Assembly: GCA_044226015.1 (NCBI GenBank)
Contig: JBGAHS010000003.1
Span: 224,001 to 288,000 of the forward strand
Direction: 5' to 3'
Source: Candidatus Obscuribacteraceae bacterium
GTDB lineage: Bacteria; Cyanobacteriota; Vampirovibrionia; Obscuribacterales; Obscuribacteraceae
Length of the DNA: 64,000 bases
Under the pieces are notes generated by a model. It saw only the letters and a program-made list of their open reading frames with translations, was not told the origin of the DNA and did no database searches. This document shows, piece by piece, positions 1,086-56,246 of the stretch. Each line of letters starts with the position of its first letter. Within the stretch, counting starts at the first letter, position 1. Made by a program: the position numbers and the translations under genes.

Positions 1086-2831
1086 ATGAAACCAGATAGC
1101 GACAACAGGAAAACAGAGCGACCATCCGAAACGGCGGAGAGCCAATCCGAGAGTGCAGAAAAGCGCGCCGAGAGGAAGGAACGAAACGAGGCTGTGCAAG
1201 GATTTGGTAATCTGACTGAAGGAATTAAAGAGCACAGACGCAAGCAACATGAATCCGGTAAGTCTGGGATCACCGGTATGGGTGATGCGAATGGAACGTT
1301 TGGATCGGCAAAAGACATTTTGGGAAAGCGGGCGCAGAAAAACAAAGAAGAAAAATCAGAAAAGTCGGAAAAGCCACGAGAGAATTTTGTCACGACTTCC
1401 GTTAAGGCAGAGTTGTTGAAAGGTTCCAACGACGGAAGTGGCGAGAATAAAATTGCTAAGAGTGAATATAAAAACGAAAACCTTGAAAAGGATGCCGCGG
1501 ACAGTGCGGCGTATCGGGCTGAGCTACTAGACAAAGCTAGTGCGACGTTGTTGAAAGGTGCCGAAGAGAGATTTGGCAAAAAGAATGTTGATATATTGAA
1601 TATTGCAGAAGGGGACGTGGGTGCAGCGACTTCTGCATTGTTATTGGGTCCTGATATTTGCAAGTTGATGGGACCTGAGCAGACAAGTCTTACAGGAAAA
1701 AAACTTGTTGTTTTTGGCATTGCTCCTATGTTCGGCGCGGCGGAAGAAGCTCAAAAGAAAATCAGCGAAGATAACCTACAGAAGACAATACATGACGGCA
1801 GCGGCAATTTCATTGGCGGAACCGCCATTGGTGCTGTGCTAGAGAAAGCACATCCCGCAATTCTCCTAGCAGCCTTAGGTGGTGGCATTGCAGCCATAAC
1901 AAATGATCAGTTGAATTCGCCCGAGCATATGCAGCGCAACGCTGAGCTGGGGCAAATGAATGGCAGGCTCGCAAATTGCAGCAATGCCGATTTGTTGCAA
2001 TTTGCAGATCGCACAAAAGCGATGCTGGGTCCAGAGTATTACAAAGCGGCCTTCGACCTGGCTACAGGTGGAGCCGGTCTACCAGAGGGAGAGGCGGTCG
2101 CTGCAGGAGTAAAGGAAGAGACCAAGCCCCTTCTGGAGCAAATCGAGCCTGCCAAGGTTTTGGAAGGACTGAAGAATTTGGGAAAAGATGCCTGGGAAGC
2201 GCTGGGTAATTTTTGTGGTGGTTCTGAAATGCTGACCACCGAAGGCGTTAAAACTCGATCGCCGAAAATAAGCAATGAAGCCGAAGATAACATTCTGCAG
2301 ATGGCACAGCATCGCGCAGATCGAGCAAATGATTGGCAAAGGGAGCTATCCAGAGAAGTAGAATCATCAAAGGGAGAAGCGACGGGATTTCGGGGAGATC
2401 ATGATTTTCATTCACCTGTAAATGAAAAAGGCAGGCGCAAATCACATATTGATGAGAATGGGGATCTGCGCCCTGCGGACCCTGCAGGGATTTACAAAGG
2501 ACGCAAAGTTAGTGTTGCTGAGCACATTGAAGCTCAAGCTTGCCGTAGAGCAAAAGAACATTCACCCTATACAAGTTTTGCTACGAAAGATGCGGTAATT
2601 GCAAAATATGGTGGCAAAGGAATCGAACTAGACCTTGACGGATTGAGGAATGCAATAACAAAAGGGGAGTTTGGTGTAAAAATACACGAGCATGAAGACG
2701 TGGTACAGTCAATTAGAAATAGCTATTTCAAGCGATATGAGAAAATAAAATTGCTGGAGTTTGTCGAAAAGGATAAGGAGATACTGGTTGAAGGAATAAT
2801 TCCGAAGCAGTTCATAAAAATTCGCGAGTGA
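1086..2831 (+). CDS. Polymorphic toxin with C-terminal ADP-ribosyltransferase/NADase-like (R-S-E) domain
   Basis: ORF 1053..2831; likely start ATG 1086 after GAGGTGG. C-terminus has GFRGD, SPYTSF and DKEILVEGIIP; N-terminus shares a motif with 54345..56246; small ORF follows. Confidence 0.65.
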   Translation: MKPDSDNRKTERPSETAESQSESAEKRAERKERNEAVQGFGNLTEGIKEHRRKQHESGKSGITGMGDANGTFGSAKDILGKRAQKNKEEKSEKSEKPRENFVTTSVKAELLKGSNDGSGENKIAKSEYKNENLEKDAADSAAYRAELLDKASATLLKGAEERFGKKNVDILNIAEGDVGAATSALLLGPDICKLMGPEQTSLTGKKLVVFGIAPMFGAAEEAQKKISEDNLQKTIHDGSGNFIGGTAIGAVLEKAHPAILLAALGGGIAAITNDQLNSPEHMQRNAELGQMNGRLANCSNADLLQFADRTKAMLGPEYYKAAFDLATGGAGLPEGEAVAAGVKEETKPLLEQIEPAKVLEGLKNLGKDAWEALGNFCGGSEMLTTEGVKTRSPKISNEAEDNILQMAQHRADRANDWQRELSREVESSKGEATGFRGDHDFHSPVNEKGRRKSHIDENGDLRPADPAGIYKGRKVSVAEHIEAQACRRAKEHSPYTSFATKDAVIAKYGGKGIELDLDGLRNAITKGEFGVKIHEHEDVVQSIRNSYFKRYEKIKLLEFVEKDKEILVEGIIPKQFIKIRE

Positions 2832-2876
2832 ATTTAAGTGCGCGAAAGTGGTGTTTATTTCAAGGATGGATAGAAT

Positions 2877-3218
2877 ATGACTGGAGAATCGCAGAGTCAA
2901 TCGGAATGGGTGAAACCGGTGAAGGCCCATCTCTATCATGGGCAAGACCTTGTTGGAATCATCACAAATATTGCAGCAGAAGATATGTTTCAGTGGAGCG
3001 GCAACATTGAACTTATGGGAAGCGCATCTGTCTACAAGCCAATGTTTGACTATTTCAATAACGAGTCGCGGCAAAGAGAACCGGATGAGCCTGATGAAGA
3101 GGACCTCCCGTTTGACGAATCATTGATGAATAACTGGTTTATAGAGGATGAAAATGGACGGCGGGCGGTCTCTTACCCGGTAGTTTCGGTGGAAGGCGAA
3201 GTATTCTGGCGAGATTGA
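2877..3218 (+). CDS. Putative cognate immunity protein
   Basis: 113-aa acidic ORF 45 bp downstream of the toxin gene, same strand; function from context only. Confidence 0.5.
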   Translation: MTGESQSQSEWVKPVKAHLYHGQDLVGIITNIAAEDMFQWSGNIELMGSASVYKPMFDYFNNESRQREPDEPDEEDLPFDESLMNNWFIEDENGRRAVSYPVVSVEGEVFWRD

Positions 3219-3715
3219 GAGATTTCTCAATTTGCTTGTCGAATTGAATCAAGAACTGAAAACCACCAAACTAACGGTTTCCAGTTCATCTTTGTCTCGT
3301 CCATTGCAAACCAGCTAATATACTTCGTACCTTGTCGGCGGGTATAAGATGGTCGCAAACGAACCGTTCCTATAAGTATTGTTGCGTGATTTGGCGAGAA
3401 AAAATCACACAACAGCAGACAGGAGAACAACACTGCAGGCTCGGCATTTCCTGTGGGTGAGTTAATTCCCGTAGAATTCGTAACAGATGAGTGGACGTTT
3501 CAAAGAGCTTAATTCCAATGCTTCTAAATCTAATCACTCAAAGGTGTGTGAGTCTTTGGTCTACAGCGCATGTTTGGCAGTCCCTGCAAGGTTCCTGTCA
3601 AACTGTGTAATTGCGCTACAAGCTAAACTTTCCTTCATTGTGACTTCCTCTCGCTTCTGTCCTTTGTTCTTCGGATTTCTTGATGTTCTCGTCTTACCGC
3701 TAGCCCCCGGATGCC

Positions 3716-3770
3716 GGGGACACTTTGGGGACAAATACAGGACTTGAGTAGGACGAATGCGTCTTACTCT
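3716..3770 (+). promoter_or_regulatory. GACA-box promoter (11-bp-period direct repeats + -10-like hexamer)
   Basis: GGGGACA 3716, GGGGACA 3727, CAGGACT 3738; TACTCT at 3765, 20 bp after the third box. Confidence 0.7.
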
Positions 3771-3803
3771 ATTACTATCGAACGACCCCCAGAGGACAGG
3801 AAA

Positions 3804-4679: not shown

Positions 4680-4693
4680 TAAGACATTTGCTT

Positions 4694-4748
4694 GAGGACA
4701 ATTTAGGAACAACTCCGGGACAAGGAGGTGACGATCGCTAGCTACTCT
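4694..4748 (+). promoter_or_regulatory. GACA-box promoter
   Basis: GAGGACA 4694, AGGAACA 4705, CGGGACA 4716; TACTCT at 4743, 20 bp after the third box. Confidence 0.65.
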
Positions 4749-4779
4749 ATAAGAACAAAGCAACCTGGAGTAACTAGAA

Positions 4780-21237: not shown

Positions 21238-21741
21238 TTAGCTGAAGAGGTTGGCGTCGCGGGCAGATGCAACCAACCAGTTGATACAACCTGGTGTTGC
21301 GAGACCGCCAGTTACACCGGCAGCGCCCCAGAGCACTCTCTTCATTGCATCTTGGGTGCCGGCAGCCATGTGCATGAAGCCCATGATCATTGTCGGACCG
21401 CCCCATGCGATGCCTAAAATTTCCATACCGTTTGCGATGATGTTCAGCAAAGCTTCTAAGTTTGCCAGGTTGTTAACACGGACGGTACCTGCAGTGTTAA
21501 CACCTTGAATAACGGTTGCATCGCCACCTTGTGGTCCAATCGTACCGTTTGTAGCACCTTGTAGCATAGGAGCTGCGGCAGCGCCACCTTGCTGTGTTTG
21601 AGAGCCAGTGTAGTTGCCGGTGTTTTGAGTTTGATTACCGGTTGCAGCAGTTGAATCGAACGCATCTTGTGCTAATGCTGGTCCTGCGAGTGCTGCCATA
21701 ATTCCGAACGAAAGAGCGACGCGAGTAATAGAATTACGCAT
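21238..21741 (-). CDS. VirB2/TrbC-like pilin, copy 1 (167 aa)
   Basis: GGAGG RBS; signal peptide PALA|QD; polar N-region; two hydrophobic helices joined by a TQDAMKR loop. Confidence 0.6.
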   Translation of the reverse strand: MRNSITRVALSFGIMAALAGPALAQDAFDSTAATGNQTQNTGNYTGSQTQQGGAAAAPMLQGATNGTIGPQGGDATVIQGVNTAGTVRVNNLANLEALLNIIANGMEILGIAWGGPTMIMGFMHMAAGTQDAMKRVLWGAAGVTGGLATPGCINWLVASARDANLFS

Positions 21742-29647: not shown

Positions 29648-30151
29648 TTAAGAGAACAAATTAGCGTCTCGTGCCGATGCTACCAACCAGTTGATGCAGC
29701 CAGGTGTTGCTAGCCCGCCAGTTACACCCGCACAGCCCCAGAGAACGCGTTTCATAGCATCCTGAGTTCCAGCAGCCATATGCATGAAGCCCATAATCAT
29801 TGTTGGTCCGCCCCAGGCAATGCCTAATATTTCCATTCCATTTGCAATGATGTTGAGCAATGCTTCGAGGTTGGCAAGGTTATTTACACGCACAGTACCT
29901 GCAGTATTAATGCCCTGAATAACAGTTGCATCATTGCCTTGCGGTCCTATGGTTCCAAAATTAGCGCCCTGCAACATCGGCGCCGAAGCGTAGCCCCCTT
30001 GCATTGTCTGCGAACCAGTGTAGAAGCCAGTGTTATTGGTTTGATTTCCCGTCGCTGCAGTCGAGTCAAATGCGTCTTGTGCTAATGCTGGACCAGCAAG
30101 GGAAAGCACAACTGCCGAAGCCATAGTAAGTTTAGCGATATTCTTGATCAT
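29648..30151 (-). CDS. VirB2/TrbC-like pilin, copy 2 (167 aa)
   Basis: Near-identical protein to copy 1 with heavily different synonymous codons. Confidence 0.6.
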   Translation of the reverse strand: MIKNIAKLTMASAVVLSLAGPALAQDAFDSTAATGNQTNNTGFYTGSQTMQGGYASAPMLQGANFGTIGPQGNDATVIQGINTAGTVRVNNLANLEALLNIIANGMEILGIAWGGPTMIMGFMHMAAGTQDAMKRVLWGCAGVTGGLATPGCINWLVASARDANLFS

Positions 30152-32510: not shown

Positions 32511-32796
32511 ATCTAACTGCCGGTCGTAGCTATCATCACCATAGTTTCGCGCAATTCTAACAATTCTGTCCAGTGAAGTACAAATTGTGATTACTCAAAA
32601 AAGTGCAATAACGTCCCTCCGACCGCACCAACATTCACTAGAGGGAAAGCAAATCTGCGCGTCCCGGAAGACACCAAGAAAAGAGCGTCATTGTATGCGA
32701 CGGCGCTTTCACGTCTTTTTCACCTGGATGGATCAATTATGGTTCAGGGCAACTCAAACTCGCGTTTATGCTGGTCTGAGTATAGGAGATTGGGCA

Positions 32797-33813
32797 ATGA
32801 GTAATGAGAAAGACGTGCGACCGCATTCCGAGTCAGGCGAAGGCGACAAAGCAACACGCATAGCAGAAAATCCCACTGAAAAACTTCAAAACGACACGAG
32901 ATTTACAGGGTCAGAAGGAAAAGAGCGCTCTGACTCGAGCGCAAAGTCCAGCCGTGACATGCAAGAGCAGGGAAAGCTAGGCAATCTCAGCATTGAAGAA
33001 GCTAGTGGATACAATAAACAACCTGTCACTGATCTGCGTGGCAGAGTGCTAAAACACCAGCCTGGTCCAAACGAGATTCCCGTTCTGCTTCCAGGGCGCG
33101 ATAACAATGGCGGCGAATACAAGAAGTTCGAGCCTGCCAGGCCAGCAGACCAGAGAACACCTCCGCTAAACGCAAATGAAATATTCGACAAGGCAAAAGA
33201 GAGCACGGTGCACATTCGCACACCAATGACTGACGGTCAAATGAAGAAGGATGCCCCTGGAAGCGGGGTAGTAATCGGCAAGTCGGAAGATAAGACCTAC
33301 ATCGCAACAGTAAATCACAACGTCGCCGGCATAGATTTGGATGGTATGAAGATTCGTCCGACGGGTTCTCCTATGGTCGAAATGCCCAATGGAAAGAAAT
33401 ATCCAGCGCGGGTGCTTGAAGGAGACAAGAAAACAGACAGAGCATTGCTAGAAGTTGATACCGGTGCTGATACCAGCACAGCCTCTAAAGCAGCAACGGT
33501 TTCCGAAGCACCTCAACTGGGAGCAAGCATGTCGGTTGGTTTCCCTAGCGATAGTAAGTCTCTCTATGCTTCGCCTGGCGACGCTGTAAATACAGACGTG
33601 AATTTGCCCGCGAAAAAGGGCTACCCCGACCATATGATTCGCTACAAACAAAGAGCGGTGGATGGCAACTCAGGCGGACCTCAATTCAACTCTAAAGGTG
33701 AGGTGCAGAGCCTTTTGGAGGGCGCAGACAAGAATGGACTCTACGAAATTCTAGGAACACCACTAACTAAATCAATGGTTGACGACTGGCAGCGCAAATA
33801 CCGGTTTCGTTGA
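32797..33813 (+). CDS. Trypsin-like (S1/HtrA-type, no PDZ) serine protease with charged N-terminal extension
   Basis: GSG.VI, TVNHNV (His), DRALL (Asp), GNSGGP (Ser); AGGAG before ATG 32797; no signal peptide. Confidence 0.85.
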   Translation: MSNEKDVRPHSESGEGDKATRIAENPTEKLQNDTRFTGSEGKERSDSSAKSSRDMQEQGKLGNLSIEEASGYNKQPVTDLRGRVLKHQPGPNEIPVLLPGRDNNGGEYKKFEPARPADQRTPPLNANEIFDKAKESTVHIRTPMTDGQMKKDAPGSGVVIGKSEDKTYIATVNHNVAGIDLDGMKIRPTGSPMVEMPNGKKYPARVLEGDKKTDRALLEVDTGADTSTASKAATVSEAPQLGASMSVGFPSDSKSLYASPGDAVNTDVNLPAKKGYPDHMIRYKQRAVDGNSGGPQFNSKGEVQSLLEGADKNGLYEILGTPLTKSMVDDWQRKYRFR

Positions 33814-34149: not shown

Positions 34150-34653
34150 TTAGCTGAACAGGTTAGCGTCACGAGCTGAAGCTACGAGCCAGTTGATTGC
34201 ACCTGGTGTTGCGAGTCCGCCAGTTACACCGGCTGCTCCCCAGAGTACGCGCTTCATTGCGTCCTGCGTTCCTGCTGCCATGTGCATGAAGCCCATAATC
34301 ATTGTTGGTCCGCCCCAGGCAATTCCGAGAATTTCCATTCCGTTTGCGATAATGTTCAAAAGTGCTTCCAGGTTAGCGAGGTTGTTAACGCGCACTGTTC
34401 CTGCGGTGTTCACACCTTGAATCACGGTTGCATCAGCGCCTTGTGGTCCGATTGTACCGTTGGTTGCACCTTGCAACATAGGGGCTGCGGTGCTTCCGCC
34501 TTGCTGCGTCTGTGAGCCAGTGTAATTGCCAGTGTTGTTTGTTTGCGCGCCCGTGTCAGCTGTTGAATTGAACGCGTCTTGCGCTAATGCCGGACCGGCA
34601 AGAGTCAAAACGACCGCTGATGCCATTGTTATCTTTGCCAGTGTCTTAATCAT
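34150..34653 (-). CDS. VirB2/TrbC-like pilin, copy 3 (167 aa)
   Basis: Start ATG 34653 (MIKTLAK) by alignment with copies 2 and 5; ORF track extends to 34746. Confidence 0.6.
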   Translation of the reverse strand: MIKTLAKITMASAVVLTLAGPALAQDAFNSTADTGAQTNNTGNYTGSQTQQGGSTAAPMLQGATNGTIGPQGADATVIQGVNTAGTVRVNNLANLEALLNIIANGMEILGIAWGGPTMIMGFMHMAAGTQDAMKRVLWGAAGVTGGLATPGAINWLVASARDANLFS

Positions 34654-34694
34654 GATAGTAAATTCTCTCTTTTCAAAATTTGTGGGTGTTCTTA

Positions 34695-34764
34695 ACTCGA
34701 ACTCTTCTTTAACGACCCATCCCAAACTCTTAGGAGGAACTTTCATGATATGTGACTAAGGTCA
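34695..34764 (-). promoter_or_regulatory. Upstream element shared by pilin copies 3 and 5
   Basis: 44 bp (34695-34738) identical to 47171-47214, plus TGAC-N4-GTCA at the same offset in both. Confidence 0.65.
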
Positions 34765-36438: not shown

Positions 36439-36894
36439 CTATTTCGACTTGAAATTTCCTAAGAAATCAAACAAATCTTTGTTGGTATCCGTGATGTTTC
36501 GCCCGAGCTTATCGTATGCCATGCCAGCAAGCGGATTGGTTTCGATAATTTCTGCAATCGAATTGTTCTTTAGCATATCAGCAATTGAGTTATTTCCGAA
36601 GAATTCAGGAAGCGAACTTTTCTGGATTAAATCACCGAAAGCTTCGCGGAGACCAGCTGCTGGAGACGCAGCGAATTGACCGATGTCGCCTACCTTTTCG
36701 CCCACATCAGTTATGTCGAGGTCGCCGAACAACTCACTTACGGCCGAACCTGCAACTCCAAGTCCCTTCATAGCGAAGCTCTCACTTGGAGAAAGAACTG
36801 TTGAGTATGCTTCTGTAGCCAGAGTGCTGACGCCTTCACCGACGGTGCTTGCTACGTCACCAATTGCATCACCGATATCATCAAAAAAAGACAT
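36439..36894 (-). CDS. Acidic orphan protein
   Basis: GGAGG RBS; MSFFDDIGDAIGD N-terminus; preceded by a GACA-box promoter. Confidence 0.65.
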   Translation of the reverse strand: MSFFDDIGDAIGDVASTVGEGVSTLATEAYSTVLSPSESFAMKGLGVAGSAVSELFGDLDITDVGEKVGDIGQFAASPAAGLREAFGDLIQKSSLPEFFGNNSIADMLKNNSIAEIIETNPLAGMAYDKLGRNITDTNKDLFDFLGNFKSK

Positions 36895-37575: not shown

Positions 37576-37887
37576 TTAGCTGAACAGATTAGCGTCACGA
37601 GCTGAAGCAACGAGCCAGTTGATTGCACCTGGTGTTGCGAGTCCGCCAGTTACACCGGCTGCTCCCCAGAGTACTCGCTTCATTGCGTCCTGCGTTCCTG
37701 CTGCCATGTGCATAAAGCCCATGATCATTGTTGGTCCGCCCCAGGCGATTCCGAGAATTTCCATTCCGTTTGCGATAATGTTCAAAAGTGCTTCCAGGTT
37801 AGCGAGGTTGTTAACGCGCACTGTTCCTGCGGTGTTCACACCTTGAATCACGGTTGCATCAGCGCCTTGTGGTCCGATTGTACCGTT
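37576..37887 (-). pseudogene. VirB2/TrbC-like pilin, copy 4, 5'-truncated
   Basis: Near-identical DNA to copy 3 from the stop codon to ...GTACCGTT (37887); signal peptide, N-region and promoter missing. Confidence 0.8.
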
Positions 37888-37931
37888 CCCCGCCGCCATG
37901 CGAGACAGCCCCCGCCGCCTTGCCAGACAGC
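37888..37931. repeat. 22-bp GC-rich tandem duplication at the pilin-4 breakpoint
   Basis: CCCCGCCGCCATGCGAGACAGC / CCCCGCCGCCTTGCCAGACAGC. Confidence 0.8.
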
Positions 37932-38028: not shown

Positions 38029-41000
38029 ATGCAGCCCACTCTCACTTGGAATTCACCCCCTTGGCTATACCCTTCTCATGTCAGGTTGTGTTTTTTCTCT
38101 CTGGTTCCCGTGGTGAAAGATTTGGCTGAGCAGGAGCTAAAACTCCACAGAGTCCCCGAATTACTTGGACAGAGCAATTCCGAGGATGATAGTGCACTCA
38201 ATGTTTTCACGCGTTCGCTTGCCTACTCTGCAGCAGTTGGTCCGTCAATTGCCATTGGCGAACTTGCGGACAAAGTTGCAAGTAAACTGACTGACTCGCA
38301 ACAATCCATCTGCACCGACACCGTGAAGAGCGTCGCCCAGATGGCTGGAGTTCAAATCAGCCCAGAACAATATTCAATGGGCTCCGCGAAATGGCAGGCA
38401 CAGCAGTTGGGCAATGCAGTCGGCATGCTTGTACCTATGACTCTCCTACACAAATCTCTGGCGCCAGCTCTTCCAGCATCTGCCGGTTTGCGATCAGCCA
38501 GCAGCGGCTTCGCCTACGGAGCAATACTCACTCCCACCAATTTAGATTCAAGCTCCAGCTTGGCTGATTTACTCGCTGCAAAAACGGAAAAAGGAATTTT
38601 TACTTCATTGACCTTCGGTGTTATGGGCGCCAGCGCTTCCCGCATCGAGAATCTTCTAGCAAACTCCAAAGTCACAAACACAGTCGCAGCCGTACTTCCA
38701 GAGATCGCAAGCGTCCATGGCACCAAGCTAGCAGCTGGTGTTCTTAGTGCGATTCCGGGGGGAGTAGTGAGTGCTCAAACAACCGCCTGGGAAAGAGGGG
38801 ACAGAATCGCGAGCCTGCAGGACACGACAGAATCAATAGCTTCCCTGGCCTATGTCGGTGGTGTGTTCGGCGCGGCAAACTTTTTCGCTACCAAACCAGC
38901 AAGCAAGGCAAAACCAGAACAACAGGTATCTACATCTGAAATTCCCAACGTAATCGATACACACCGCTTCATTTTAGAAGAACCCGGCTCCAGAGGGAGG
39001 CTTTCAGGGGACTGGATGGAAACATTGCCCAGGTCAAAAGATGACCCCTTCAGCAATTGCTCAAGTCTTTCTCATCGAATTGGCATCTATAAAGAAGACC
39101 GAATCTCAAACTACTTTCAAGATGAACGAGAGTCAGAGTACGGGCTGAAACAGATGTACTTTGAACACAACCAACTAAAGTATTTTCCTGATCGATCGTT
39201 CGCTAGCCTGATAAAAAAGAGTCCGCTCATAGATAGACAATTCGATGACTCTAGCGCTCGAAATTCACTTCACCTCAAGTACTACAAACTCTACCCGGGT
39301 GAGCCTGGTGTGTCACTAAGGACGCGAGGATCCATTCTTCAGAGTTCAGGAATTACCGAACAAGAATTAGCTGGTCTCATAAAACAACACCTTAATACAG
39401 AAATACAGAATTCATCGCCAGACACACAGAGTAAAGCGATCGATTTCTTCCTGCGCACAGATTTTCCTCCTAGAAGACTTGTTGATCTTGTCCCTCTGGT
39501 GGATGAGAGATTGCTTCATTCGCTGACGCAGACCGAATTAAGAGTTGACCAACAGGACACTATTATTGAGAAATGGAACTCTCTAAGCGAGAAGACAAAG
39601 GAAATGCCTCTGCCTGTTCTGGCAAAGCTATTGAATTACCAAAACGCCTTAACTGAAGAACAGCTCGCTAGCCCGCACGTGCAAGAATATGCTGAACTAT
39701 TACATGAACTTGATTATCACGCTAAGGGTTACGAACATAATCTCGACGATCAATTCATTCGGTTTTATAGCGACCGGAAGCTTAGCTCAGCAGAGGCGGT
39801 TGGGGTCTTGCGCAGCTGGAAGGAACTTACTCCCGATGTAAAACTTCTTCCCAATGAAACGCTGGCTCCCATCGCATACAATTACCACTTAATGACGCCA
39901 GAGCAGCGCTTATTGCCCGTACCAGAACTGTCACGTTACACCAAGATAATTGACGATCTTCAGTTACAAGAGAATGGTGTAAAACAACTGAATAGCGAAT
40001 TTGCAGACTGGTATATCGCTAACTCACCAAGCGTTGATATGGCTCTGTTTGGCTTGAACAAATGGACCGAGTTATCGCCGGAATTGCGCAATCGTTTACA
40101 CGAGCCAGAACTCAAAGACAGAATACATGACCTACAAAGGCAATGGAAAAATCTATCACCTGAGCATCGTAGCTCAACCGGAACCAAGGCTCTTAATTGG
40201 GCTCATTTACGCGCAAATCTAGATGTACCAAGCTCAGCGATTCCAGAAGACTACTTAAGCTGGTACACAGTCAACAGACCCTCAAGAGCAGAAGCGCGTA
40301 AAGTATGGAGAGGCTGGAAAGAGTTTACTCCTGCTGTAAAAGCAATGGATGCTCCTTTGTTGTTTTTTCTGGCTGAGCACTGGAGCGATATTCCGACTGC
40401 CCAGAGGCAGCTCGAACCTAAGGAAATAATTCGGCAACTGAATTTGAGCGGCGAAATTGGCAAACCCCTGAACACAATTGACCCTGAGTTTGTGGAGTGG
40501 CATCGACAAAACGAACCAGCAAAAAAGGATTTGCGAATTCTGGAACGAACATGGGCGGACTTACGCAGTGATCTAAAAACCATGAAAGGCGATGATCTTG
40601 CTTGCATTGCCCGTATCTGGTCAAAACTAAATGACGAACAAAAGACGCGTCCACAGGCTGAACTTTTGCACTGGTCAAAATATTACGAAGCGCTAGGAAC
40701 CAAGCCACAGATCGAAGAGATAGTAAAAGAATCTCCAAGCTTCCGAAACTGGTTCGAAAAGAACAGTACCGATAACGGGCAGTCTATTCCTAACGTATTC
40801 GCTCACTGGAGCGATCTGACACGCGAACTTAGAGACCTTGGTCTAAAAGAAACCAGCGAGCTGATAGCTACTATGTTCTCTCAGCCAGGAAGAAATACGG
40901 CTGGAATAATTCGCGGATTGGAACTTACCGAACTGAGTTCAGGGAAAGACCCGGAGGCAGCTAAGAAACTGCTAGCTTCTCTTAAGAATGGCAGCTCAAT

Positions 41001-43494
41001 CACAGACTGGGTCGATGGAGAGGCTCAACGAATGGGGCTTTCGCAACTAGATCTTCTGGACAAAATGACAGCCATTTCTAGAATGAGCAGATCATTTTTT
41101 CTTGAAGATGCGCCCCTTGCTGAACTACCTAAAGAGCTTGTGGACAAGATGCTTCGTCTACCACTCTGGAAGTTGGAACCTGCTGTTTCCCTCTGGCAAA
41201 ATCAGGTGCGCCGTAACCTGGGGAATGTCTTGTTTACAGACAGAGCATCTGCAGGTCTTGAGGACGTTCCGCTTGTGAATGATGGCATCGAAGGTATCAA
41301 GAAATGGAACGAAACCGTAAACAACAGAGCATTTCTCGACGAGTTTTACTCGCAACTAGATGAGGCAACTGCAGCTGGCAGAGATGCGCAACTCAGCTCG
41401 TCTTCAAGCCCCTACATGGTAGTCAGACAATACTTCCCTGATCTCGAACCAGGATACGTAAACATCCTTGTTCAAAGCTTGCAAGGAGTAAGCCGGCCGA
41501 AAGACTATGTCGAGAGAATACAGCCTACTGAAATTAGAAATGCACTTCGGCGAATTAGTTTTTCGACTGATGCGAAACAGAACGCATTCGAAAAAACCGG
41601 TATTTTAGTTGCTGGCAACAACTCCTGGGTCAATGCTCAAACGGGTCATGACGGGCGCGCGGTGGTCGCGATGAATCTCCTTTCAGTTTTTGGGAAGCAG
41701 TGGGGACGTTGGCTCGATCTCCAGACCCTGAAGCACGCATTGAATTTAGAGGGTGACACAAAAGCCCGCGAAACACCCAACACTGATGAGCTAGACGAGC
41801 CAATAACAACGGAGCCTCTAAACGTGGCTCAAGCTGTCAGAGGCATGAGCGATGCAAGAAAGGCTGAACTTTTTGGCAGCCTCAGCGAATCACAAACGCA
41901 CACAGCAATACATGATGCCATGTGGATGCTTCAAAAAGTAAAGCGAGAACATGCCGAATGTTTATCGCAATGGTTGTTCAAATATTTTGATCGAGACCCT
42001 GCAGAATTGGGAGTTGTGAACAAAAGATGGCACCGCCTCGAAAGCTCATTTCGCACAGCTCCCTACAGATATGCGGACGTAGTGAATGCAGCAAAGTCGC
42101 ATAACTACGAGAACATTCAACATTCAGAGTTTGCAAAAGAAGCAGCCAAATGGGGCGTTTCCGAAGAGCGCTATCCTGAGTATGAACGCCGCTTTCTGGA
42201 CTCACAAAATTCACCTTTGCCATTTCCTCTAGATAAAGCATGGAAAGTAGGAACATATACAGGAAGGTTTCTGCCCCGCGCTGACGTTCGTGGTGTTTTT
42301 CTTGGACAACACTCCACCTGCTGCCAACACCCAGACAACTCAGCTGGTAATAGCGCCGCGTGGATGGGGCAAGAGCACCCTGCTGCGGGTTTCTTCGTAG
42401 TGGAAAGTGCAACAAAAAAAATTGTTGCACAGTCACTTGTTTGGCAATCAGATAACGGCGGTTTGGTTTTTGACAGCATCGAAGGCAAAAGACCAAAATT
42501 AGTTGAATTGGAAGCCGACCAAAACGCAGCTGCGCAAAACGCGTTAGCACAAAACGCGGCAGCACAGGACGAAGGCGCACAAGACGCAGCTGCGCAAAAC
42601 ATAGCCGCACCAAACATTGGAGCACAAGCAGACACAAGGAATGCAGGCGCGCAGGGTGCAAGGGCTCAAAACATAGGCGCACGACAAGCGGGCGCACAGA
42701 ATACAGGTGACACCGCAAATGGTACCACTGCCCAAGAGAAGAGCAATGAGGCAAAAGCAATCGAACACCTAAAGAAAACGGTGTCCGACATTTATGATGC
42801 AGCAGCAAAAGATCTGATCAAGGACTACTCTAGAATATCCGTCGGCGTGGGGCAAAGCGCAGGAAAAAGTATTGCTGATTTCGATCGCTGGCAAGCAAGC
42901 GAAGCCGAGGAGATCATGGAGACGCCGAAAGATTATTCCGGCTATTCAGATGCAAGAAAGAAGCAGCTTACGATAGCCACAAACGAAAATCCAGTTCAAG
43001 CAGAACCGACTACCCAGGCTAAAACGTGGACTCGTGCCGCAACGCCAACTGACCTGGTTAGTGCCAAGAAGATTGCAGAAGCAGTCTATCCAAGGGGATG
43101 GAACTTTATCTCTCCAGGAGATTGGAATAGGGTTTTGCAATCTAAAGAGAAAGGCGTGATTGGATATGCAACCATGGACACGCGTTCTCACTACATTACT
43201 GACGTTGCGGTACTGCCAGAGTATGGTGGCAAGTCCGTCTTGCTTTTGCGAGATATTCTTTCTGAAGTGAAGCGAATAGGTGGCAACTGGAAAGCGAACG
43301 CTCGCGCAAGCACTTCCTATGAGCTCTTGAAGCGAGCAGAGGCTCTCCGCTGGATCCAGATTGATAGAGAGATTCATCGTCCAGGAATAATGAGCGGCGA
43401 AGACATGTACGACATAATCTTCCATGTACCAGACAGACAAAGAAACAACAACGCGGCAGCACAAGCAAACGAAGCTACAGCTAACACGCAGTAA
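38029..43494 (+). CDS. Giant multidomain effector-like protein with C-terminal GNAT acetyltransferase-like domain (start uncertain)
   Basis: N-terminal hydrophobic G/A-rich region; Trp-containing helical repeats; STCCQHP domain; AQN low-complexity insert; C-terminal VIGYA..ITDVAVLPEY.G. Confidence 0.65.
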   Translation: MQPTLTWNSPPWLYPSHVRLCFFSLVPVVKDLAEQELKLHRVPELLGQSNSEDDSALNVFTRSLAYSAAVGPSIAIGELADKVASKLTDSQQSICTDTVKSVAQMAGVQISPEQYSMGSAKWQAQQLGNAVGMLVPMTLLHKSLAPALPASAGLRSASSGFAYGAILTPTNLDSSSSLADLLAAKTEKGIFTSLTFGVMGASASRIENLLANSKVTNTVAAVLPEIASVHGTKLAAGVLSAIPGGVVSAQTTAWERGDRIASLQDTTESIASLAYVGGVFGAANFFATKPASKAKPEQQVSTSEIPNVIDTHRFILEEPGSRGRLSGDWMETLPRSKDDPFSNCSSLSHRIGIYKEDRISNYFQDERESEYGLKQMYFEHNQLKYFPDRSFASLIKKSPLIDRQFDDSSARNSLHLKYYKLYPGEPGVSLRTRGSILQSSGITEQELAGLIKQHLNTEIQNSSPDTQSKAIDFFLRTDFPPRRLVDLVPLVDERLLHSLTQTELRVDQQDTIIEKWNSLSEKTKEMPLPVLAKLLNYQNALTEEQLASPHVQEYAELLHELDYHAKGYEHNLDDQFIRFYSDRKLSSAEAVGVLRSWKELTPDVKLLPNETLAPIAYNYHLMTPEQRLLPVPELSRYTKIIDDLQLQENGVKQLNSEFADWYIANSPSVDMALFGLNKWTELSPELRNRLHEPELKDRIHDLQRQWKNLSPEHRSSTGTKALNWAHLRANLDVPSSAIPEDYLSWYTVNRPSRAEARKVWRGWKEFTPAVKAMDAPLLFFLAEHWSDIPTAQRQLEPKEIIRQLNLSGEIGKPLNTIDPEFVEWHRQNEPAKKDLRILERTWADLRSDLKTMKGDDLACIARIWSKLNDEQKTRPQAELLHWSKYYEALGTKPQIEEIVKESPSFRNWFEKNSTDNGQSIPNVFAHWSDLTRELRDLGLKETSELIATMFSQPGRNTAGIIRGLELTELSSGKDPEAAKKLLASLKNGSSITDWVDGEAQRMGLSQLDLLDKMTAISRMSRSFFLEDAPLAELPKELVDKMLRLPLWKLEPAVSLWQNQVRRNLGNVLFTDRASAGLEDVPLVNDGIEGIKKWNETVNNRAFLDEFYSQLDEATAAGRDAQLSSSSSPYMVVRQYFPDLEPGYVNILVQSLQGVSRPKDYVERIQPTEIRNALRRISFSTDAKQNAFEKTGILVAGNNSWVNAQTGHDGRAVVAMNLLSVFGKQWGRWLDLQTLKHALNLEGDTKARETPNTDELDEPITTEPLNVAQAVRGMSDARKAELFGSLSESQTHTAIHDAMWMLQKVKREHAECLSQWLFKYFDRDPAELGVVNKRWHRLESSFRTAPYRYADVVNAAKSHNYENIQHSEFAKEAAKWGVSEERYPEYERRFLDSQNSPLPFPLDKAWKVGTYTGRFLPRADVRGVFLGQHSTCCQHPDNSAGNSAAWMGQEHPAAGFFVVESATKKIVAQSLVWQSDNGGLVFDSIEGKRPKLVELEADQNAAAQNALAQNAAAQDEGAQDAAAQNIAAPNIGAQADTRNAGAQGARAQNIGARQAGAQNTGDTANGTTAQEKSNEAKAIEHLKKTVSDIYDAAAKDLIKDYSRISVGVGQSAGKSIADFDRWQASEAEEIMETPKDYSGYSDARKKQLTIATNENPVQAEPTTQAKTWTRAATPTDLVSAKKIAEAVYPRGWNFISPGDWNRVLQSKEKGVIGYATMDTRSHYITDVAVLPEYGGKSVLLLRDILSEVKRIGGNWKANARASTSYELLKRAEALRWIQIDREIHRPGIMSGEDMYDIIFHVPDRQRNNNAAAQANEATANTQ

Positions 43495-43789: not shown

Positions 43790-44293
43790 GTGGAGATTTC
43801 GCGAATGTTAGACAGATTAGACTTCGCTCCGGCTGAAGATCAGCATGAAGAAACGGCGTCAGCCAGATTATCAAATTCAATAATGGATGAGCTTCGCCAG
43901 GTGCAAGCTTCGCAATCAACAAATGATGAACCCAACTTAGACCTGGTTGGATACCGAATCACGCCTCAACACGCACGCAATCTATGCAACGGGTTAAATC
44001 AACTTCAAAACGAGATGTGCCTGCAGGCGTGGAAAAGAGACGGCTACCGAACAAATAGTGAGTTAGACACACACGAAACATTCGGAGAAATGTGGGCTCG
44101 TGAAGAGCGAGAAATGCGTTCGTTTGAGCGCAAACATCATTATCGTCCACTCGACCCAAGAGCACCATGGAACCAAGATCCATCACGCCTGAACGCAGAT
44201 AGAACGGTGCGATGCCTTGGTCCCAACGCACCGAAGTCCAAAGGAGACGAACGATATCGCTGCTCCACAGAAAACAGTGGCGGATTCTGGTAA
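43790..44293 (+). CDS. Hypothetical protein
   Basis: 167-aa ORF, no signal peptide. Confidence 0.55.
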   Translation: MEISRMLDRLDFAPAEDQHEETASARLSNSIMDELRQVQASQSTNDEPNLDLVGYRITPQHARNLCNGLNQLQNEMCLQAWKRDGYRTNSELDTHETFGEMWAREEREMRSFERKHHYRPLDPRAPWNQDPSRLNADRTVRCLGPNAPKSKGDERYRCSTENSGGFW

Positions 44294-46684: not shown

Positions 46685-47128
46685 TTAGCTGAACAGATTA
46701 GCGTCACGAGCTGAAGCAACGAGCCAGTTGATTGCACCTGGTGTTGCGAGTCCGCCAGTTACACCGGCTGCTCCCCAGAGTACGCGCTTCATTGCGTCCT
46801 GCGTTCCTGCTGCCATGTGCATGAAGCCCATAATCATTGTTGGTCCGCCCCAGGCGATTCCGAGAATTTCCATTCCGTTTGCGATGATGTTCAAAAGTGC
46901 TTCCAGGTTAGCGAGGTTGTTTACGCGCACTGTTCCTGCGGTGTTCACACCTTGAATTACTGTTGCGTCAGCGCCTTGTGGTCCGATTGTACCGTTGGTT
47001 GCACCCTGCAACATTGGGGGCGCACCGGTATCAGCTGTTGAATCAAACGCGTCTTGTGCTAGAGCTGGTCCGGCAAGTGTCAAAACGACTGCTGATGCCA
47101 TTGTTATCTTTGCCAGGTTCTTAATCAT
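46685..47128 (-). CDS. VirB2/TrbC-like pilin, copy 5 (147 aa; 60-bp in-frame deletion)
   Basis: Near-identical to copy 3 but reads TGAPPMLQ where copy 3 has TGAQTNNTGNYTGSQTQQGGSTAAPMLQ. Confidence 0.6.
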   Translation of the reverse strand: MIKNLAKITMASAVVLTLAGPALAQDAFDSTADTGAPPMLQGATNGTIGPQGADATVIQGVNTAGTVRVNNLANLEALLNIIANGMEILGIAWGGPTMIMGFMHMAAGTQDAMKRVLWGAAGVTGGLATPGAINWLVASARDANLFS

Positions 47129-49006: not shown

Positions 49007-50740
49007 TTATTTTACAGCTGAAAGTGCTTGTTGAGCTGACTCACTGAGCCGCCCTCGTTTATCATAGACAAGAGGCTTAATGTAATCAGTGTACTTCCTC
49101 ACAAGCACAGCGTTGCGAGACAACAACCTGCAGCACAAAGCTGCAATGCTGGCATCTTTGCTTACTACAAGCGCTCCAAAAATTTCGTCATCATTTTGTG
49201 GAGCGTATTGCATTTCTTCAAGACCTATCAAAGCGGCCTCGACAGTAGAGAAAACCTCTCCCTGAGAGCCCATTTGCTTGTGCAGCAGCTGAATAATGTT
49301 GATCAATTCTTTTGCAGCCGATGCTGATTCTTGCCCAAACTTTCCGAGGCACCAAACAGCCTCCAATCTTGTTTTGGAATTATCAAGACATTTGATGATT
49401 TCAGGTAAAGCTTTTTCGAACTTCAGTTCAGTGAGAGCTTTCATAGCCTCTTCTGCTTCAGTCTTCGTTGTAGCTACCGCCAGCAAAGCCTGAATTTTCT
49501 CCCCGCATCTCTCAAACAGCTCATTTATCTTTGAACACTCATCATAATCAACCATATCAGGAAGGCAATATCGCTCACAAGCAATCTCATTTATCTCTTC
49601 CATTGCTGATGCACGAACATTTTCCTTTTCAGAATCAAGACTCTGCAGAAGAAATTCAAGTCCGGCTACCATCAACGAAGGCTCGCGCAATACCTTTTTT
49701 CCTACTCCAGCAATTTTTGCAAAAGCCACGCTTGCCCCGTCTTTGCCGTTTGCATTCTTCTCTTTCTTGGCTTTGCTCGGGCGTGATTTTGTTTCAAAGT
49801 CAGCTTCAACTACTGCCTCATCGTCCACTTCCTCGGCATCTAATTCATTTTCGCTGAATTCAGCATCATCCGAATACAAAGAAATCACCTTAGCTTTATT
49901 ATGCACTTCACCAACTAAGCCTTGAAGCGAAGAGGGAAGAGCAATACCCAAGCCAAGACAGTTAGCAATAAAGAAATGCACCAGATTTGGTGCCAAAACA
50001 GTCGGCGTTTCGTCCCGACCAAATCGAATCACTTGCCCAATCTCTCCACCGCTGGCCGGGTCAAGGTCGACCCCAATAAAGTTGCCACCAAAGTCCTTCG
50101 CAAAGGGCACCCAGAGCTCGTTATAGAGCATTCGCTTTACCGGCCCCTCAGCGCCACCACCTGAATAATCGATGTCTTCAAAACTTTCATGTTCAGTAAG
50201 TACTCCATCAACACCACGTAAAGGCATAAAGAAGAAACCGCCAAACAACTTTGTCGTGACCTCTTTCTCCTGGACATCGTCATCCAGCCGATTAAAAGTG
50301 TGGTACAAACATTTATAATCTGCAGGAAGTTTTTTGCCCACCTGTGCTTCCAATTCCTCAAGTTCAGCCACCGGGGCATTTTTTGCGAAACTATGAACTA
50401 TGGCACCATCGTGCTCTTTTAACCAGAGTTTCATACAAACAAAAATGTCTTCAAGCACTGACTCTTTTGCTGAGCTGATTTTTGCATCAGCCACCGGCAC
50501 AGCATTTGAATGTGCTTCAGTATTAGCATCCGCCTCAACCTCGACGTAGCCCTTTGTTTGCTTCTCTACAATCAGCTTATCGTATTCTTTCTTCGCTTTC
50601 GACTCGGAGTCGAAGTCTTTGGATTTACTCTGCCCGCTTGTGCCAATGCGTCCCCATGTTGTGGTGACAGAACAACCATCAAGGTCAATTGCCCAGAATT
50701 TGCTAGAGCTGCCGTCTTGAAACTCAAACCGCCGTGTCAT
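49007..50740 (-). CDS. WGR + SMI1/KNR4 (SUKH) + HEAT-repeat protein
   Basis: KFW..TTWGRIG..GQ..KGY; LE..G.KLP.DY..WVPFA.D.GGN..VDLDP..G..GQV; C-terminal HEAT-like helices; start ATG 50740 with AGGAG RBS. Confidence 0.85.
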   Translation of the reverse strand: MTRRFEFQDGSSSKFWAIDLDGCSVTTTWGRIGTSGQSKSKDFDSESKAKKEYDKLIVEKQTKGYVEVEADANTEAHSNAVPVADAKISSAKESVLEDIFVCMKLWLKEHDGAIVHSFAKNAPVAELEELEAQVGKKLPADYKCLYHTFNRLDDDVQEKEVTTKLFGGFFFMPLRGVDGVLTEHESFEDIDYSGGGAEGPVKRMLYNELWVPFAKDFGGNFIGVDLDPASGGEIGQVIRFGRDETPTVLAPNLVHFFIANCLGLGIALPSSLQGLVGEVHNKAKVISLYSDDAEFSENELDAEEVDDEAVVEADFETKSRPSKAKKEKNANGKDGASVAFAKIAGVGKKVLREPSLMVAGLEFLLQSLDSEKENVRASAMEEINEIACERYCLPDMVDYDECSKINELFERCGEKIQALLAVATTKTEAEEAMKALTELKFEKALPEIIKCLDNSKTRLEAVWCLGKFGQESASAAKELINIIQLLHKQMGSQGEVFSTVEAALIGLEEMQYAPQNDDEIFGALVVSKDASIAALCCRLLSRNAVLVRKYTDYIKPLVYDKRGRLSESAQQALSAVK

Positions 50741-51205
50741 TTTCGCTCCTAATTGAGAGAAATAGAAGTCTACCTCAAGAGCAGAAGGCGCTGGCAGGCT
50801 TAATATTACCTCTTTGATTAAATGCACTGGCACACGCTGTCAAAACGAGGAAAACGCCGACCAAGGCAAGCTTACAGGAGTGCAAAGCAAGCTTTATGCA
50901 GGGACACAAACTATCTTGCGGAATTGGGATTTGCAGCCTATCAAATCCTTGCGGCATCAAGAATTTACTTCCCTCGCCATTCGAACCTATCTGTAATTCT
51001 GCCTGGTTGCCAAAGACATAAATGCACAACAATTCGGTCTGCTCGTTGAAAGCATTGAATTTACGAAGTTCAGAAACAGAAGACAAGCTTGCTGAGCCAA
51101 AACCCAAATGCTTGTCCGAAACAAGTTTACGAGACGAAGAGACTTCACGTTCGTTGCAAGTTTACCGGTTAGAATATCTGTCCAATCCCTTACCATACAT
51201 GCATC

Positions 51206-52495: not shown

Positions 52496-52543
52496 TTTCA
52501 AAAAAAGTGCGACACAGATAAAGGCAAGCAGGAGGCAACACCA

Positions 52544-54025: not shown

Positions 54026-54344
54026 CCCAATGACCATTATTCCGTTATCTTTAAGCCATCGTTATCAAAGATATATGCAAAGCAAGCATTGCGCTGGTAC
54101 TTGGACAACCAAGGGAAACTGATACAAGATGAACAAAGAGGACCGGCACTGCCGGCACATAGGTTTGCTATGATGAATTAAGCCAGACTGATATCTCATT
54201 GCCTGGGCAACTTCACTTTCTCGGTCAAAGCAAAAAAATCAAAAAGCGAATAGAGCTAGACGAAGCCGAGCTAGCGGAGAGACTTAAGAAAACACTGATT
54301 CAAAAGGGGAATAATATAGGACAGTAGCTCTCAGGTTTGCATTA

Positions 54345-56246
54345 ATGAATCACAACACCAACGATAGCGATCATAAAGAGCGTTCGGAAAGACCCGAAAG
54401 CAAAACTGATCGTGTTGAGAAAAGAGCAGAGAACAGAGAGCGCGGCGAAGCCTGCATAGAGCTGGCAAACGGGGCTCTAAACAAAGACATTCAAGCCGCT
54501 ATTGTGGAAAAGCGTCTTTCAAGAAAGAGCGGTGCAACTGGCTATGGTGTAGCTTCTGCTGATTCACTCTTGCCTCTGGATAAAAAGAGCAAAGGCAAAG
54601 TTTCCGTACCGGAAGGAATATCAGAGACGGAATACATCGCAGCAGTAAAGCAAGCTGAGGCACAACAGCAGGAGAAAACGCCAATAGCTTTGATCGCCCA
54701 GGGCGTTGAAAACGATCCATTCAACCAACAATCGAAGATCGTTAGCGATGGCAGCAGTTCAGTATCTCGGAGTAAGTCAGTTGATGCTGGACTGGAAGAT
54801 GCTAGGCAGCAGCTGCTAAAGGATGGGGCGCCATCATCACTAGTAGACTCGCTCAAACCGGAGCCAAAGAAACTAGAGGGCTATATCAACAATACGCCAG
54901 ACGTAAAAGAAAAGATCGAGGAAAGCCCAGTTTCGATGATGGCTAAAGCTATGGAGCCTGTGACAGATAGCTTTAGCAAGTTTACTGCCGAGTCAACGAA
55001 GCACCTACATAACATGATGGAGGAAGCTAAAGAAGCCTTCGGAATTAAGCCATCGGAAAAGCCTCACAACTCAATTAGCCCGGAAGGGTTTGCCGTTCTG
55101 CAATCCGTGGAGAGCCCTAGAGATGCTTCTCATGTGCTTGCCGGGGCTGTAACCGGGTTCGACAAAACAATTAATGAGGCAATGCCAGGACTTACACCAA
55201 GAGGAGCCTTGGAAGCCACAGCAGAATTAGGAAAGCGAATTGTTGATCGTGCTTTGCATCCAGCACCTGAAGCAGTTCTAGATCAGCTAAAGCATCAATT
55301 AGACCCAATCGGAGCCTTCAAGGACGACATCGCAAAGCTTGGAAAAAAATATGATCAGATGGTTGATTGGGCCGCTGATCGAAGTCAAAAGAGTTTTTCA
55401 GAGCGCGGAGAATCGGCAGGCAAAGCCGGTCCTGATGTTTTGATGGCTGCTGAGGGAATTGTGTTCATTGCCAAATCAGGTGAATGGATCACTCGTGAGA
55501 ATGCTATTAGAGCAGGACTAGAGAAGCTCACCCCAGAAGAATTGAAAGAGCGCGGAATAACAAAAACAACAGTGGAGCACATGAAGCCCGAAGACATCGT
55601 TAATCCGATTGATAGGAACGCTTCTCCGGAAGAGAAGATTAGACAATTGCAGAAACTATCAGCTGAGAATCAGCCGTTGATTGAGGACTTCAAGAACCAG
55701 GTTGATTCCAAATATGGAAGCTTTTCATATGGAGAACCAAAAAAGCCGCAAGACATACTCGACAAACCACAAAGGCAAGAAGTACGCGAAAAGTATCCGT
55801 GGTTCGAAATTGAACATGTTAGAGACTCGCAGAGATTCACAACCGTTGTTGATAATTTGGATGCACTGCCAGCGATTGCGAAGGACCTGAAAGAAAGTGG
55901 GTTCCAGGTGATTGATGCACCTATCTCCAAAATGGAACCAAATAAACGAGGCTGGAGAATGATGCCGTTTGACCTTCGTGCGCCAAATGGTCAGCTCATT
56001 GAATATCAAGTCTTGTTCAAAGAAATGGCTGAAGCCGGTCGAGTAACTCACCCAATTCACAAAAAATGGCGTGGTAGTGAGTCATCTGAACTGTCAAAAT
56101 CAGACAAAATCTTGAAGCAGACAGACTTTGTGACTGCACGTGATACTTGTAATGCAGCTTGGGATGCGTATTTGAAGCGTACCGGACAAAACGCAGAACA
56201 CATTAGGACAATATTGGAACAAGTTCAAAACATATTGAGGCAATGA
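54345..56246 (+). CDS. Polymorphic toxin with C-terminal RelA/SpoT-like (small alarmone synthetase) domain
   Basis: K.P..I..K, VRDSQRF, GWR, GQLIEYQV, H..H..WR match SAS motifs; N-terminus shared with 1086..2831; ATGA overlap with the downstream small gene. Confidence 0.75.
   Translation: MNHNTNDSDHKERSERPESKTDRVEKRAENRERGEACIELANGALNKDIQAAIVEKRLSRKSGATGYGVASADSLLPLDKKSKGKVSVPEGISETEYIAAVKQAEAQQQEKTPIALIAQGVENDPFNQQSKIVSDGSSSVSRSKSVDAGLEDARQQLLKDGAPSSLVDSLKPEPKKLEGYINNTPDVKEKIEESPVSMMAKAMEPVTDSFSKFTAESTKHLHNMMEEAKEAFGIKPSEKPHNSISPEGFAVLQSVESPRDASHVLAGAVTGFDKTINEAMPGLTPRGALEATAELGKRIVDRALHPAPEAVLDQLKHQLDPIGAFKDDIAKLGKKYDQMVDWAADRSQKSFSERGESAGKAGPDVLMAAEGIVFIAKSGEWITRENAIRAGLEKLTPEELKERGITKTTVEHMKPEDIVNPIDRNASPEEKIRQLQKLSAENQPLIEDFKNQVDSKYGSFSYGEPKKPQDILDKPQRQEVREKYPWFEIEHVRDSQRFTTVVDNLDALPAIAKDLKESGFQVIDAPISKMEPNKRGWRMMPFDLRAPNGQLIEYQVLFKEMAEAGRVTHPIHKKWRGSESSELSKSDKILKQTDFVTARDTCNAAWDAYLKRTGQNAEHIRTILEQVQNILRQ

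Follow-up and report, generated by a model that had tools for sequence, protein, structure and literature searches.

Polymorphic toxins are taken here as defined by Zhang et al. 2012 (PMC3482391), in the available text of which the contact-dependent growth inhibition (CDI), Rhs, LXG and MuF classes have a constant N-terminal part, a recombined C-terminal toxin, a toxin-immunity gene order and extra immunity copies. Effectors of the Xanthomonas type IV secretion system (X-T4SS) provide a second comparison, being dispersed toxins with cognate immunity and a short shared domain, the XVIPCD, which in the accessible part of PMC8740702 is C-terminal, ~120 amino acids (aa) long and arranged alpha-alpha-beta-beta-beta, with the immunity genes upstream. 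The DNA described here, referred to as the window, is a stretch of 64,000 nucleotides (nt) from a Candidatus Obscuribacteraceae bacterium (C6:224001-288000 of a genome of 8.19 Mb that is 92% complete, C denoting contigs of this genome). It contains two genes, A and B, whose products share an N-terminal leader of ~80 residues and differ in their C-terminal domains, termed tips. The arrangement resembles the CDI, Rhs, LXG and MuF classes in all the respects listed, and the EC869 nuclease, WHH, deaminase, ADP-ribosyltransferase and RelA/SpoT tip families are common to both (PMC3482391, available text). It differs from the known classes in that no delivery domain of Pfam or NCBIfam and no Rhs/FHA stalk is present and the middle of the protein is exchanged too. 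As in the X-T4SS, a short domain occurs on dispersed toxins with cognate immunity and a chromosomal VirD4 is a candidate receptor; here, however, the tag is N-terminal and predicted to be mainly helical, the immunity genes lie downstream, and VirD4 remains a candidate. We tentatively read A and B as members of a polymorphic toxin family whose leader would direct export through the VirB4/VirD4 machine of the order, whose tips would be toxic and whose acidic partner genes would confer immunity (Table 1).

Table 1. Genes A and B, their parts and adjoining features (positions in the window)
Feature	Position	Strand	Description
Probable toxin gene A	1086..2831	+	581 aa; leader, middle module shared with C9 paralogue, junction motif, predicted ADP-ribosyltransferase-fold tip
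Class-1 leader of A	1086..1340	+	Charged stretch, predicted long helix (EKRAERKERNEA at 1158), SGKSGITG (1254), SAKDIL (1305)
Middle module of A	1533..2120	+	Approximately residues 150-345; Gly/Ala-rich, mildly hydrophobic helices; 56-70% identical to C9 paralogue
Junction motif EDNILQMA	2283..2306	+	Residues 400-407; identity to other carriers switches here
Predicted ADP-ribosyltransferase-fold tip of A	2346..2831	+	R436, S493, D563, E565 invariant in 12 aligned tips
Likely immunity gene of A	2877..3218	+	113 aa, pI 4.2
Probable toxin gene B	54345..56246	+	633 aa; leader, middle unlike that of A, RelA/SpoT-like tip
Class-1 leader of B	54345..54575	+	EKRAENRERGEA at 54417, SRKSGATG at 54519, SADSLL at 54555
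Predicted RelA/SpoT-like synthetase tip of B	55596..56246	+	Conserved residues over 33 aligned tips
Likely immunity gene of B	56243..56518	+	91 aa, pI 4.6; 4-base overlap with B stop
Second copy of B immunity family	56608..56829	+	73 aa; likely remnant of earlier tip exchange
Inverted repeat	56882..56940	.	22-nt arms, 95% complementary, 3' of B cassette; possible terminator

The alignment of the A and B N-termini, proposed in a first-pass annotation of the sequence, is borne out, with both open reading frames (ORFs) and their motif strings located as in Table 1 and residues 4-70 of A aligning with residues 7-72 of B at 28/70 identities (40%; E 3e-6, composition-adjusted BLASTP). This is the sole significant segment, and the same search aligned nothing else between A and B, in agreement with the proposal that the remainders are unrelated. 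The local score of the two leaders is 92, compared with a mean of 33 and a maximum of 65 over 20,000 shuffles, none of which reaches 92, so the similarity survives the composition control that the annotation had called for. Among 711 hydrophilic N-termini of this genome, the three highest non-self scores of A (158, 128 and 92) belong to family members and the next is 67. A low-complexity artefact of charged N-termini, in keeping with the charged, biased first 30 residues and with one false match to a repeat protein (P0014), is almost certainly not the explanation, given the shuffles, the columns of fixed spacing in 70 sequences described below and the nearly invariable N-terminal position of the leader. 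An in-frame ATG at 1053 would extend A to 592 aa, and ATG 1086 is taken as the start because its Shine-Dalgarno-like stretch is the better of the two and homologs begin at the aligned position.

The leader defines a family, referred to as class 1. A profile of 70 sequences, which leaves out P0014 and P0046, has the core AE-K-ER-EA..L......E+R.SGKSG(A/V)TG...G(L/F).SA.DLL with fixed-spacing columns S95%, T91%, S92% and A95%. Iterated profiles identify five members in this genome, the next match having E 0.039; beyond the five, a half-leader is joined directly to an HExxH tip at C6:321860-322411. At C1:731289-733096 a leader variant lies in one frame and its middle and tip in another. The class-1 protein L045 carries two leader copies. 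The search of this genome and related assemblies suggested by the annotation was made with a 24-sequence profile in 104 genomes of the family and 24 genomes of other families. The leader is present in 9/104 genomes, which comprise this one, six of the seven other genomes of the genus (1-11 matches each) and, beyond the genus, G094 with one strong and G071 with one marginal match; the 24 genomes of other families gave no match. Among 1.84 billion sequence representatives 50 matches were obtained, and with P0014 dropped as a repeat artefact 49 proteins remain, in which the leader is almost always N-terminal. A word-index search with the leader recovered A alone, a related-locus search found none, and 93% of sampled words of the A region are present in one independent activated-sludge run; no RNA run is listed with the region, which carries no information on expression.

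Comparison of the leader with described domains gave a best Pfam match to JUPITER (E 0.005, below the cut-off, in 3/24 leaders), matches of E 0.014 or weaker in PHROGs, and none in NCBIfam, PDB sequences or the ESM Atlas. No delivery domain was matched in A or B in Pfam or NCBIfam, and class-defining Rhs, CdiA, LXG, PAAR or MuF domains gave 0 matches in these two databases over A, B, 24 leaders and 45 homologs, as had been anticipated from the lack of visible hallmarks. In the AlphaFold2 model of the leader, residues 17-57 form a single long helix and the SAxDLL block a short one, and a Foldseek search with this low-confidence model returned nothing informative.

The class-1 leader is found on 0/11 database homologs of the A tip and 2/33 of the B tip; the 44 N-termini of these homologs fall into 16 clusters, nearly all hydrophilic. 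All-against-all comparison of N-termini defines a class 2 leader (EA.AGK..L...QK....LK.GGKSGIT.EFGKP.L.D) with the spacing of class 1, present in 21/104 genomes and 12/37 genera. Comparison of the class-1 (70 sequences) and class-2 (30 sequences) profiles gives a probability of 92.7, E 4e-7 and a score of 37.8, against 8.6 +/- 1.9 (maximum 15.3) for the column-shuffle control; the probability is 49.6 with only four class-2 sequences. By profile similarity the two leaders are homologous. A looser motif, [FL][GP]x[LVIPF]x[ILF]xD, occurs in 15/711 hydrophilic N-termini (2.1%) compared with 0.24% of internal windows. This generic motif and the junction motif described below were both written after sight of the sequences, and the enrichments are therefore not blind tests. 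These results suggest a lineage-wide, fast-drifting export leader, and the motif of the first-pass annotation, which does mark a real family, is too narrow a definition, being the genus-level variant among many Obscuribacterales leaders.

Class-2 leader proteins in this genome are encoded at C11:619517-622315, C4:402479-404473, C9:520932-521789 and C7:618726-619559, and some relatives have two tandem leaders. The class-2 cargo is presumably LysM, protease-like and repeat proteins, with what we take to be annexin-like repeats on some relatives. Within the window, the products of 32587-33813 (+), 36439-36894 (-) and 43790-44293 (+) have hydrophilic N-termini without a signal peptide; LGNLSIEE in a trypsin-like protease and FGDLDITD in a small protein among them are akin to the generic leader motif.

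The leader, middle and tip are each exchanged among members. A paralogue on C9 has its leader and middle in common with A (46% over 429 columns) and carries another tip, whereas in 50-residue windows A is at most 28% identical to P0051 before the tip and 72-74% thereafter. B is 78-96% identical to P0069 through residue 450 and then 64, 62, 36 and 39%, and its identity to P0012 is 60 and 62% and then falls to about 20%. The B tip (52%) and its partner gene (52%) are common to a GGDEF-containing protein on C11 with another N terminus. The switch in A coincides with a D-x-x-hydrophobic-x-M-S/A motif, a pattern chosen post hoc that is present in 14/93 carriers compared with 2.3% in shuffles. A translocation or stalk role is predicted for the middle module of A. 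The product of 38029-43494 (+) in the window, an 1821-aa protein with helical repeats, a GNAT-looking end and no Pfam match, has a Gly/Ala-rich hydrophobic N-terminal module like the toxin carriers C11:283638 and C1:149877.

The tips are diverse, with 39 tips forming 21 clusters, and toxin-type matches among them support the proposed swapping of toxin-type C termini. Pfam names are available for the EC869 CDI nuclease, WHH nuclease, XOO_2897 deaminase, DUF6932 and transglutaminase tips, weak matches were obtained to DUF6782 and ATLF metallopeptidases, and most of the 21 clusters are without a Pfam name. Further tips are labelled PD-(D/E)xK, lysozyme-like, CdiA-C-like and caspase-like on motifs that we assume to be diagnostic.

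The tips of A and B are very probably toxic. The model of the A tip (predicted local distance difference test, pLDDT, 86) was compared with known structures using VIA-align, in which the top 20 of 27 rows are all of the ADP-ribosyltransferase fold with Z 2.6-4.9. The best match is EcPltA (Z 4.9, root mean square deviation 3.8, 105 aligned), which is also the best Foldseek match (E 0.015), and in the Atlas the tip lies with the DUF7587/Scabin/pertussis S1 clusters at 0.96, with recognition below the threshold. The scores are low and agree with one another, and with R436, S493 and E565 invariant the modelled A tip is an R-S-E ADP-ribosyltransferase fold, as the annotation had proposed. It shares its fold and the R...S...E positions with EcPltA, pertussis S1, Scabin and TreX, and differs from them in its 10-16% identity, Z under 5, D-x-E catalytic loop, lack of a B subunit gene and cognate immunity gene. 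In its logic the A tip resembles the Rhs tip TreX more than the AB5 toxins.

In the B tip, K466, K474, R477, R493, D494, R497, G536, W537, R538, E553, Q555 and H569 are conserved in at least 90% of 33 aligned tips. These include the RxK..K..R, RD..R and ExQ motifs, which we take to be the layout of RelA/SpoT synthetases, and PF04607 (RelA_SpoT) is matched by 2/21 B tip homologs (best E 2e-7), in accord with the initial RelA/SpoT-like call. PDB sequence searches with the A and B tips gave nothing relevant. The exported alarmone synthetases Tas1 and Apk1 likewise combine a RelA/SpoT-like domain with an adjacent small partner gene (PMC12691689, main text), and B is unlike them in that its carrier has no PAAR, LXG or Sec signal and its third motif is GWR..PFD. 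The same main text describes, for Streptomyces, synthetases that have no signal peptide and lie next to TrwB/TrwK conjugation genes, and does not name Obscuribacter, Melainabacteria or Cyanobacteria.

Each toxin gene is followed by a small acidic gene (isoelectric point, pI, in Table 1), as first described, with two such genes after B whose products are 64% identical over 64 aa. A homolog of the A partner lies directly after the A tip in 20/21 loci from 14 genomes, and in the 21st the tip is split and the partner homolog is within the locus. A B partner homolog is present in 28/30 B-tip loci from 19 genomes, two having none, and it is placed directly downstream in 18, divergent upstream in eight, after a broken tip in one and convergent in one; the partner profiles were iterated on the same loci in which the partners were counted. 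Among class-1 members, those with the same tip are followed by the same gene. Because the partner genes track the tips and not the leader, and the toxin tips vary, the genes form a polymorphic toxin family in the sense of Zhang et al. 2012 (PMC3482391, available text).

The eight divergent loci are mostly standalone tip genes of ~270 aa; standalone B tips of ~270-300 aa with a divergent upstream, sometimes duplicated, partner occur at L150, L152, L163, L164, L166, L167, L169 and L170. This standalone form in 8/30 loci, the accessory nature of the cassettes and the occurrence of RelA/SpoT-like toxins in toxin-antitoxin pairs (PMC12691689, main text) would suit intracellular toxin-antitoxin or anti-phage modules in which the leader would serve regulation, degradation or sensing. 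We consider this improbable, as immunity genes that come after the toxin and are duplicated, together with tips of CDI type, are in keeping with polymorphic toxins. Lysozyme-like tips and class-2 LysM or protease-like cargo, presumably named correctly, would be implausible inside the producer.

Both cassettes are insertions, being absent from the same sites in two of two closely syntenic genomes each. In G004 and G005 the S8 peptidase gene is followed directly by Tad-like genes without the A cassette, which is also missing from the more distant Tad operon of G002, and in G003 and G007 the amine oxidase gene abuts the major facilitator superfamily gene without the B cassette. No target-site repeat is seen at either cassette. 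The Tad genes beside A are thus incidental, and a link between the leader and these genes, raised in the annotation, is not supported. The same applies to the supposed VirB2-like pilins, as the pilin-like genes of the window match no pilin profile, and PF18895 has no match in this genome. These genes, at 29648-30151, 34150-34746, 37576-37899 and 46685-47128 (all -) and also at 21238-21741, are near-identical, with a signal peptide, two hydrophobic helices and an ARDANLFS end, and have eight close copies in the genome. The ARDANLFS tail is also C-terminal on a 965-aa and a 1237-aa protein (C9, C7).

The mobility of the family might instead reflect a leader addressed to the coupling protein of mobile conjugative elements, with the family spreading as plasmid cargo. 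Relaxase, coupling-protein (VirD4-like) or primase genes occur in 4/31 stretches that carry a member, a fifth member has such genes at a distance of 12 kb, and in three ORFs a primase is continued by the leader. This explanation is quite improbable, since 27/31 stretches, those of A and B included, have no such genes and the stretches read show no VirB4 belonging to the elements. In the three primase-like ORFs (L090:2355-5324; P0035 and P0041) the reading frame extends through a class-1 leader to an HExxH tip; the leader retains a Met of its own, and fusion and read-through are both possible. C2, a contig of 70 kb whose member is among the four stretches, is mobile-element-like, with MobC, a relaxase, a VirD4-like protein and DnaJ ahead of a class-1 toxin, and with primases, a 2883-aa protein and an integrase-like gene.

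Neither N terminus has a signal-peptide-like hydrophobic stretch on inspection of the sequence, the highest 19-residue hydropathy being 1.38 at A247 and 1.14 at B365, and a Tat motif is found in 0 of 79 family N-termini, in line with the reported lack of Sec and Tat signals. The leader is probably a Sec-independent export signal. Secretion markers were searched in five genomes of the genus (91-95% complete) with one marker family per system. VipB, FHIPEP, sheath and VgrG were matched in 0/5 and WXG100 in 0/5 over the cut-off, the controls giving matches, and the CdiB/ShlB transporter ShlB in 0/5, its control likewise having no match. The FtsK search matched mainly VirB4, so that no EccC-like ATPase was seen, and secretins number two per genome in 5/5. 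With type III, VI, VII and contractile markers not found, a domesticated type IV-like machine is the best candidate, by exclusion only, and if the proteins are exported the chromosomal VirB4/VirD4 machine is slightly more likely than not to be the route.

Two loci could encode this machine. C10:63035-71720 (L097) contains a DUF2225 gene, a small membrane gene, VirB4, a gene for a 215-aa membrane protein, VirD4, which carries a long Pro/Gln tail, and Replic_Relax, with C10:63035-71022 as the type IV-like locus of the small membrane gene, VirB4, VirD4 and Replic_Relax. C1:182285-211355 (L096, L136, L134-L135) contains VirB4, Tad-like pilins, large membrane proteins, tetratricopeptide repeat proteins and a weak TrbI match, with no relaxase or coupling protein seen, and looks like a Tad/type IV hybrid machine. 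TrbI/VirB10 matches are weak and below the cut-off, and pilin, VirB6 and VirB8 profiles have no match. The chromosomal VirD4 is single-copy in 59/60 genomes of the order, and both VirB4s are present in 6/6 Obscuribacterales tested, the C1 type being 72-93% identical. Type IV secretion has been proposed for effector delivery in Vampirovibrio chlorellavorus, of the same class, the system there being of the T-type Trb kind (PMC4451040, available text), and no orthologue of the two VirB4s, that of C1 included, was found in 21 genomes of other orders. The C1 VirB4 has two in-frame stops in this assembly (C1:183852-183882). Loss of the gene in this species was considered and dropped, because at both stops the letters differ in an independent run; the possible source run holds both forms of the region.

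In the proposed mechanism the leader would be read in the cytoplasm by the coupling protein or VirB4, and the toxin would cross the envelope independently of Sec, its middle module aiding entry. The A tip may poison a competitor by ADP-ribosylation of a cytoplasmic target and the B tip by pyrophosphate transfer to nucleotides or tRNA, and in kin the acidic partner would bind the tip and protect the producer. Recombination at the junction motif would import tip-partner pairs, with spare immunity copies such as 56608-56829 remaining.

Several observations weigh against this interpretation. The machine is found throughout the order and the leader nearly only in the genus, so their co-occurrence reflects lineage and not linkage. 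G001, a 91% complete genome of the same genus, encodes both VirB4s and VirD4 and no class-1 or class-2 leader, and G003 (91% complete, 230 contigs) has four class-1 matches and no chromosomal VirD4 match. No member lies consistently beside the type IV-like machine, the relaxase-like Replic_Relax gene in the VirD4 operon hints at DNA handling, and the type IV signals so far described for toxins lie at the C terminus (PMC8740702, accessible part). The leader model has a low-confidence pLDDT of 63, the ADP-ribosyltransferase matches of A score low, and B itself has no match to PF04607. The lysozyme-like and HExxH types make up 17/39 tips, and at four such loci inspected no co-directional partner gene is present. 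Two members have hydrophobic tails followed by calpain-like genes in place of a small partner; these class-1 members, C7:455450-460360 (L003) and L045, have long helical repeats before the tail, and the calpain-like protease genes encode 472 aa.

The secretins and Tad genes also constitute an alternative route, and the same toxin-immunity family and leader could use Tad/secretin, an unrecognised machine, vesicles or colicin-like lysis. In addition to the secretins and G003, this explanation draws on the Tad-like pilin genes flanking the C1 VirB4 and, by analogy with colicins (PMC3482391, available text), on mildly hydrophobic middles that might serve self-uptake. It appears rather unlikely, since the Tad genes beside A are an insertion site only, secretins normally need Sec/Tat entry, which these proteins lack, and no lysis gene is seen adjoining A or B. 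In favor of the proposed VirB4/VirD4 export, the cargo includes both wall-lytic-looking and cytoplasm-acting domains and has no signal peptide. More speculatively, and doubtful at present, a domesticated type IV-like machine of the Obscuribacterales (two VirB4s, VirD4, Tad-like pilins) might be a general exporter reading fast-drifting N-terminal leaders, of which class 1, class 2 and the LPxLxLxD-type would be dialects of one signal on toxins, proteases and repeat proteins; polymorphic toxins would then have a new export route based on an N-terminal type IV signal.

A and B would extend the polymorphic toxins by a class whose delivery tag has no described counterpart, in an uncultured order that is common in sludge. 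Searches with the leader sequence may reveal new toxin and immunity domains. Export by the VirB4/VirD4 pair would provide a possible purpose for genes kept in almost every genome of the order, and a machine reading N-terminal leaders would be unlike the described antibacterial type IV systems with C-terminal signals. Literature searches, mostly outside subscription papers, for Obscuribacter or Obscuribacterales with polymorphic toxins, type IV secretion or effectors and for new N-terminal trafficking domains gave nothing relevant, and supplements of the cited papers might list such proteins.

Two further immunity-type genes were observed. An orphan A-immunity homolog lies between the convergent giant ORFs C12:174188-217390 (+) and 217944-250880 (-), of ~14,400 and 11,000 aa, and a WGR, SMI1/KNR4 (SUKH) and HEAT protein with an immunity-type domain is encoded at 49007-50833 (-) in the window, 3.5 kb from B.

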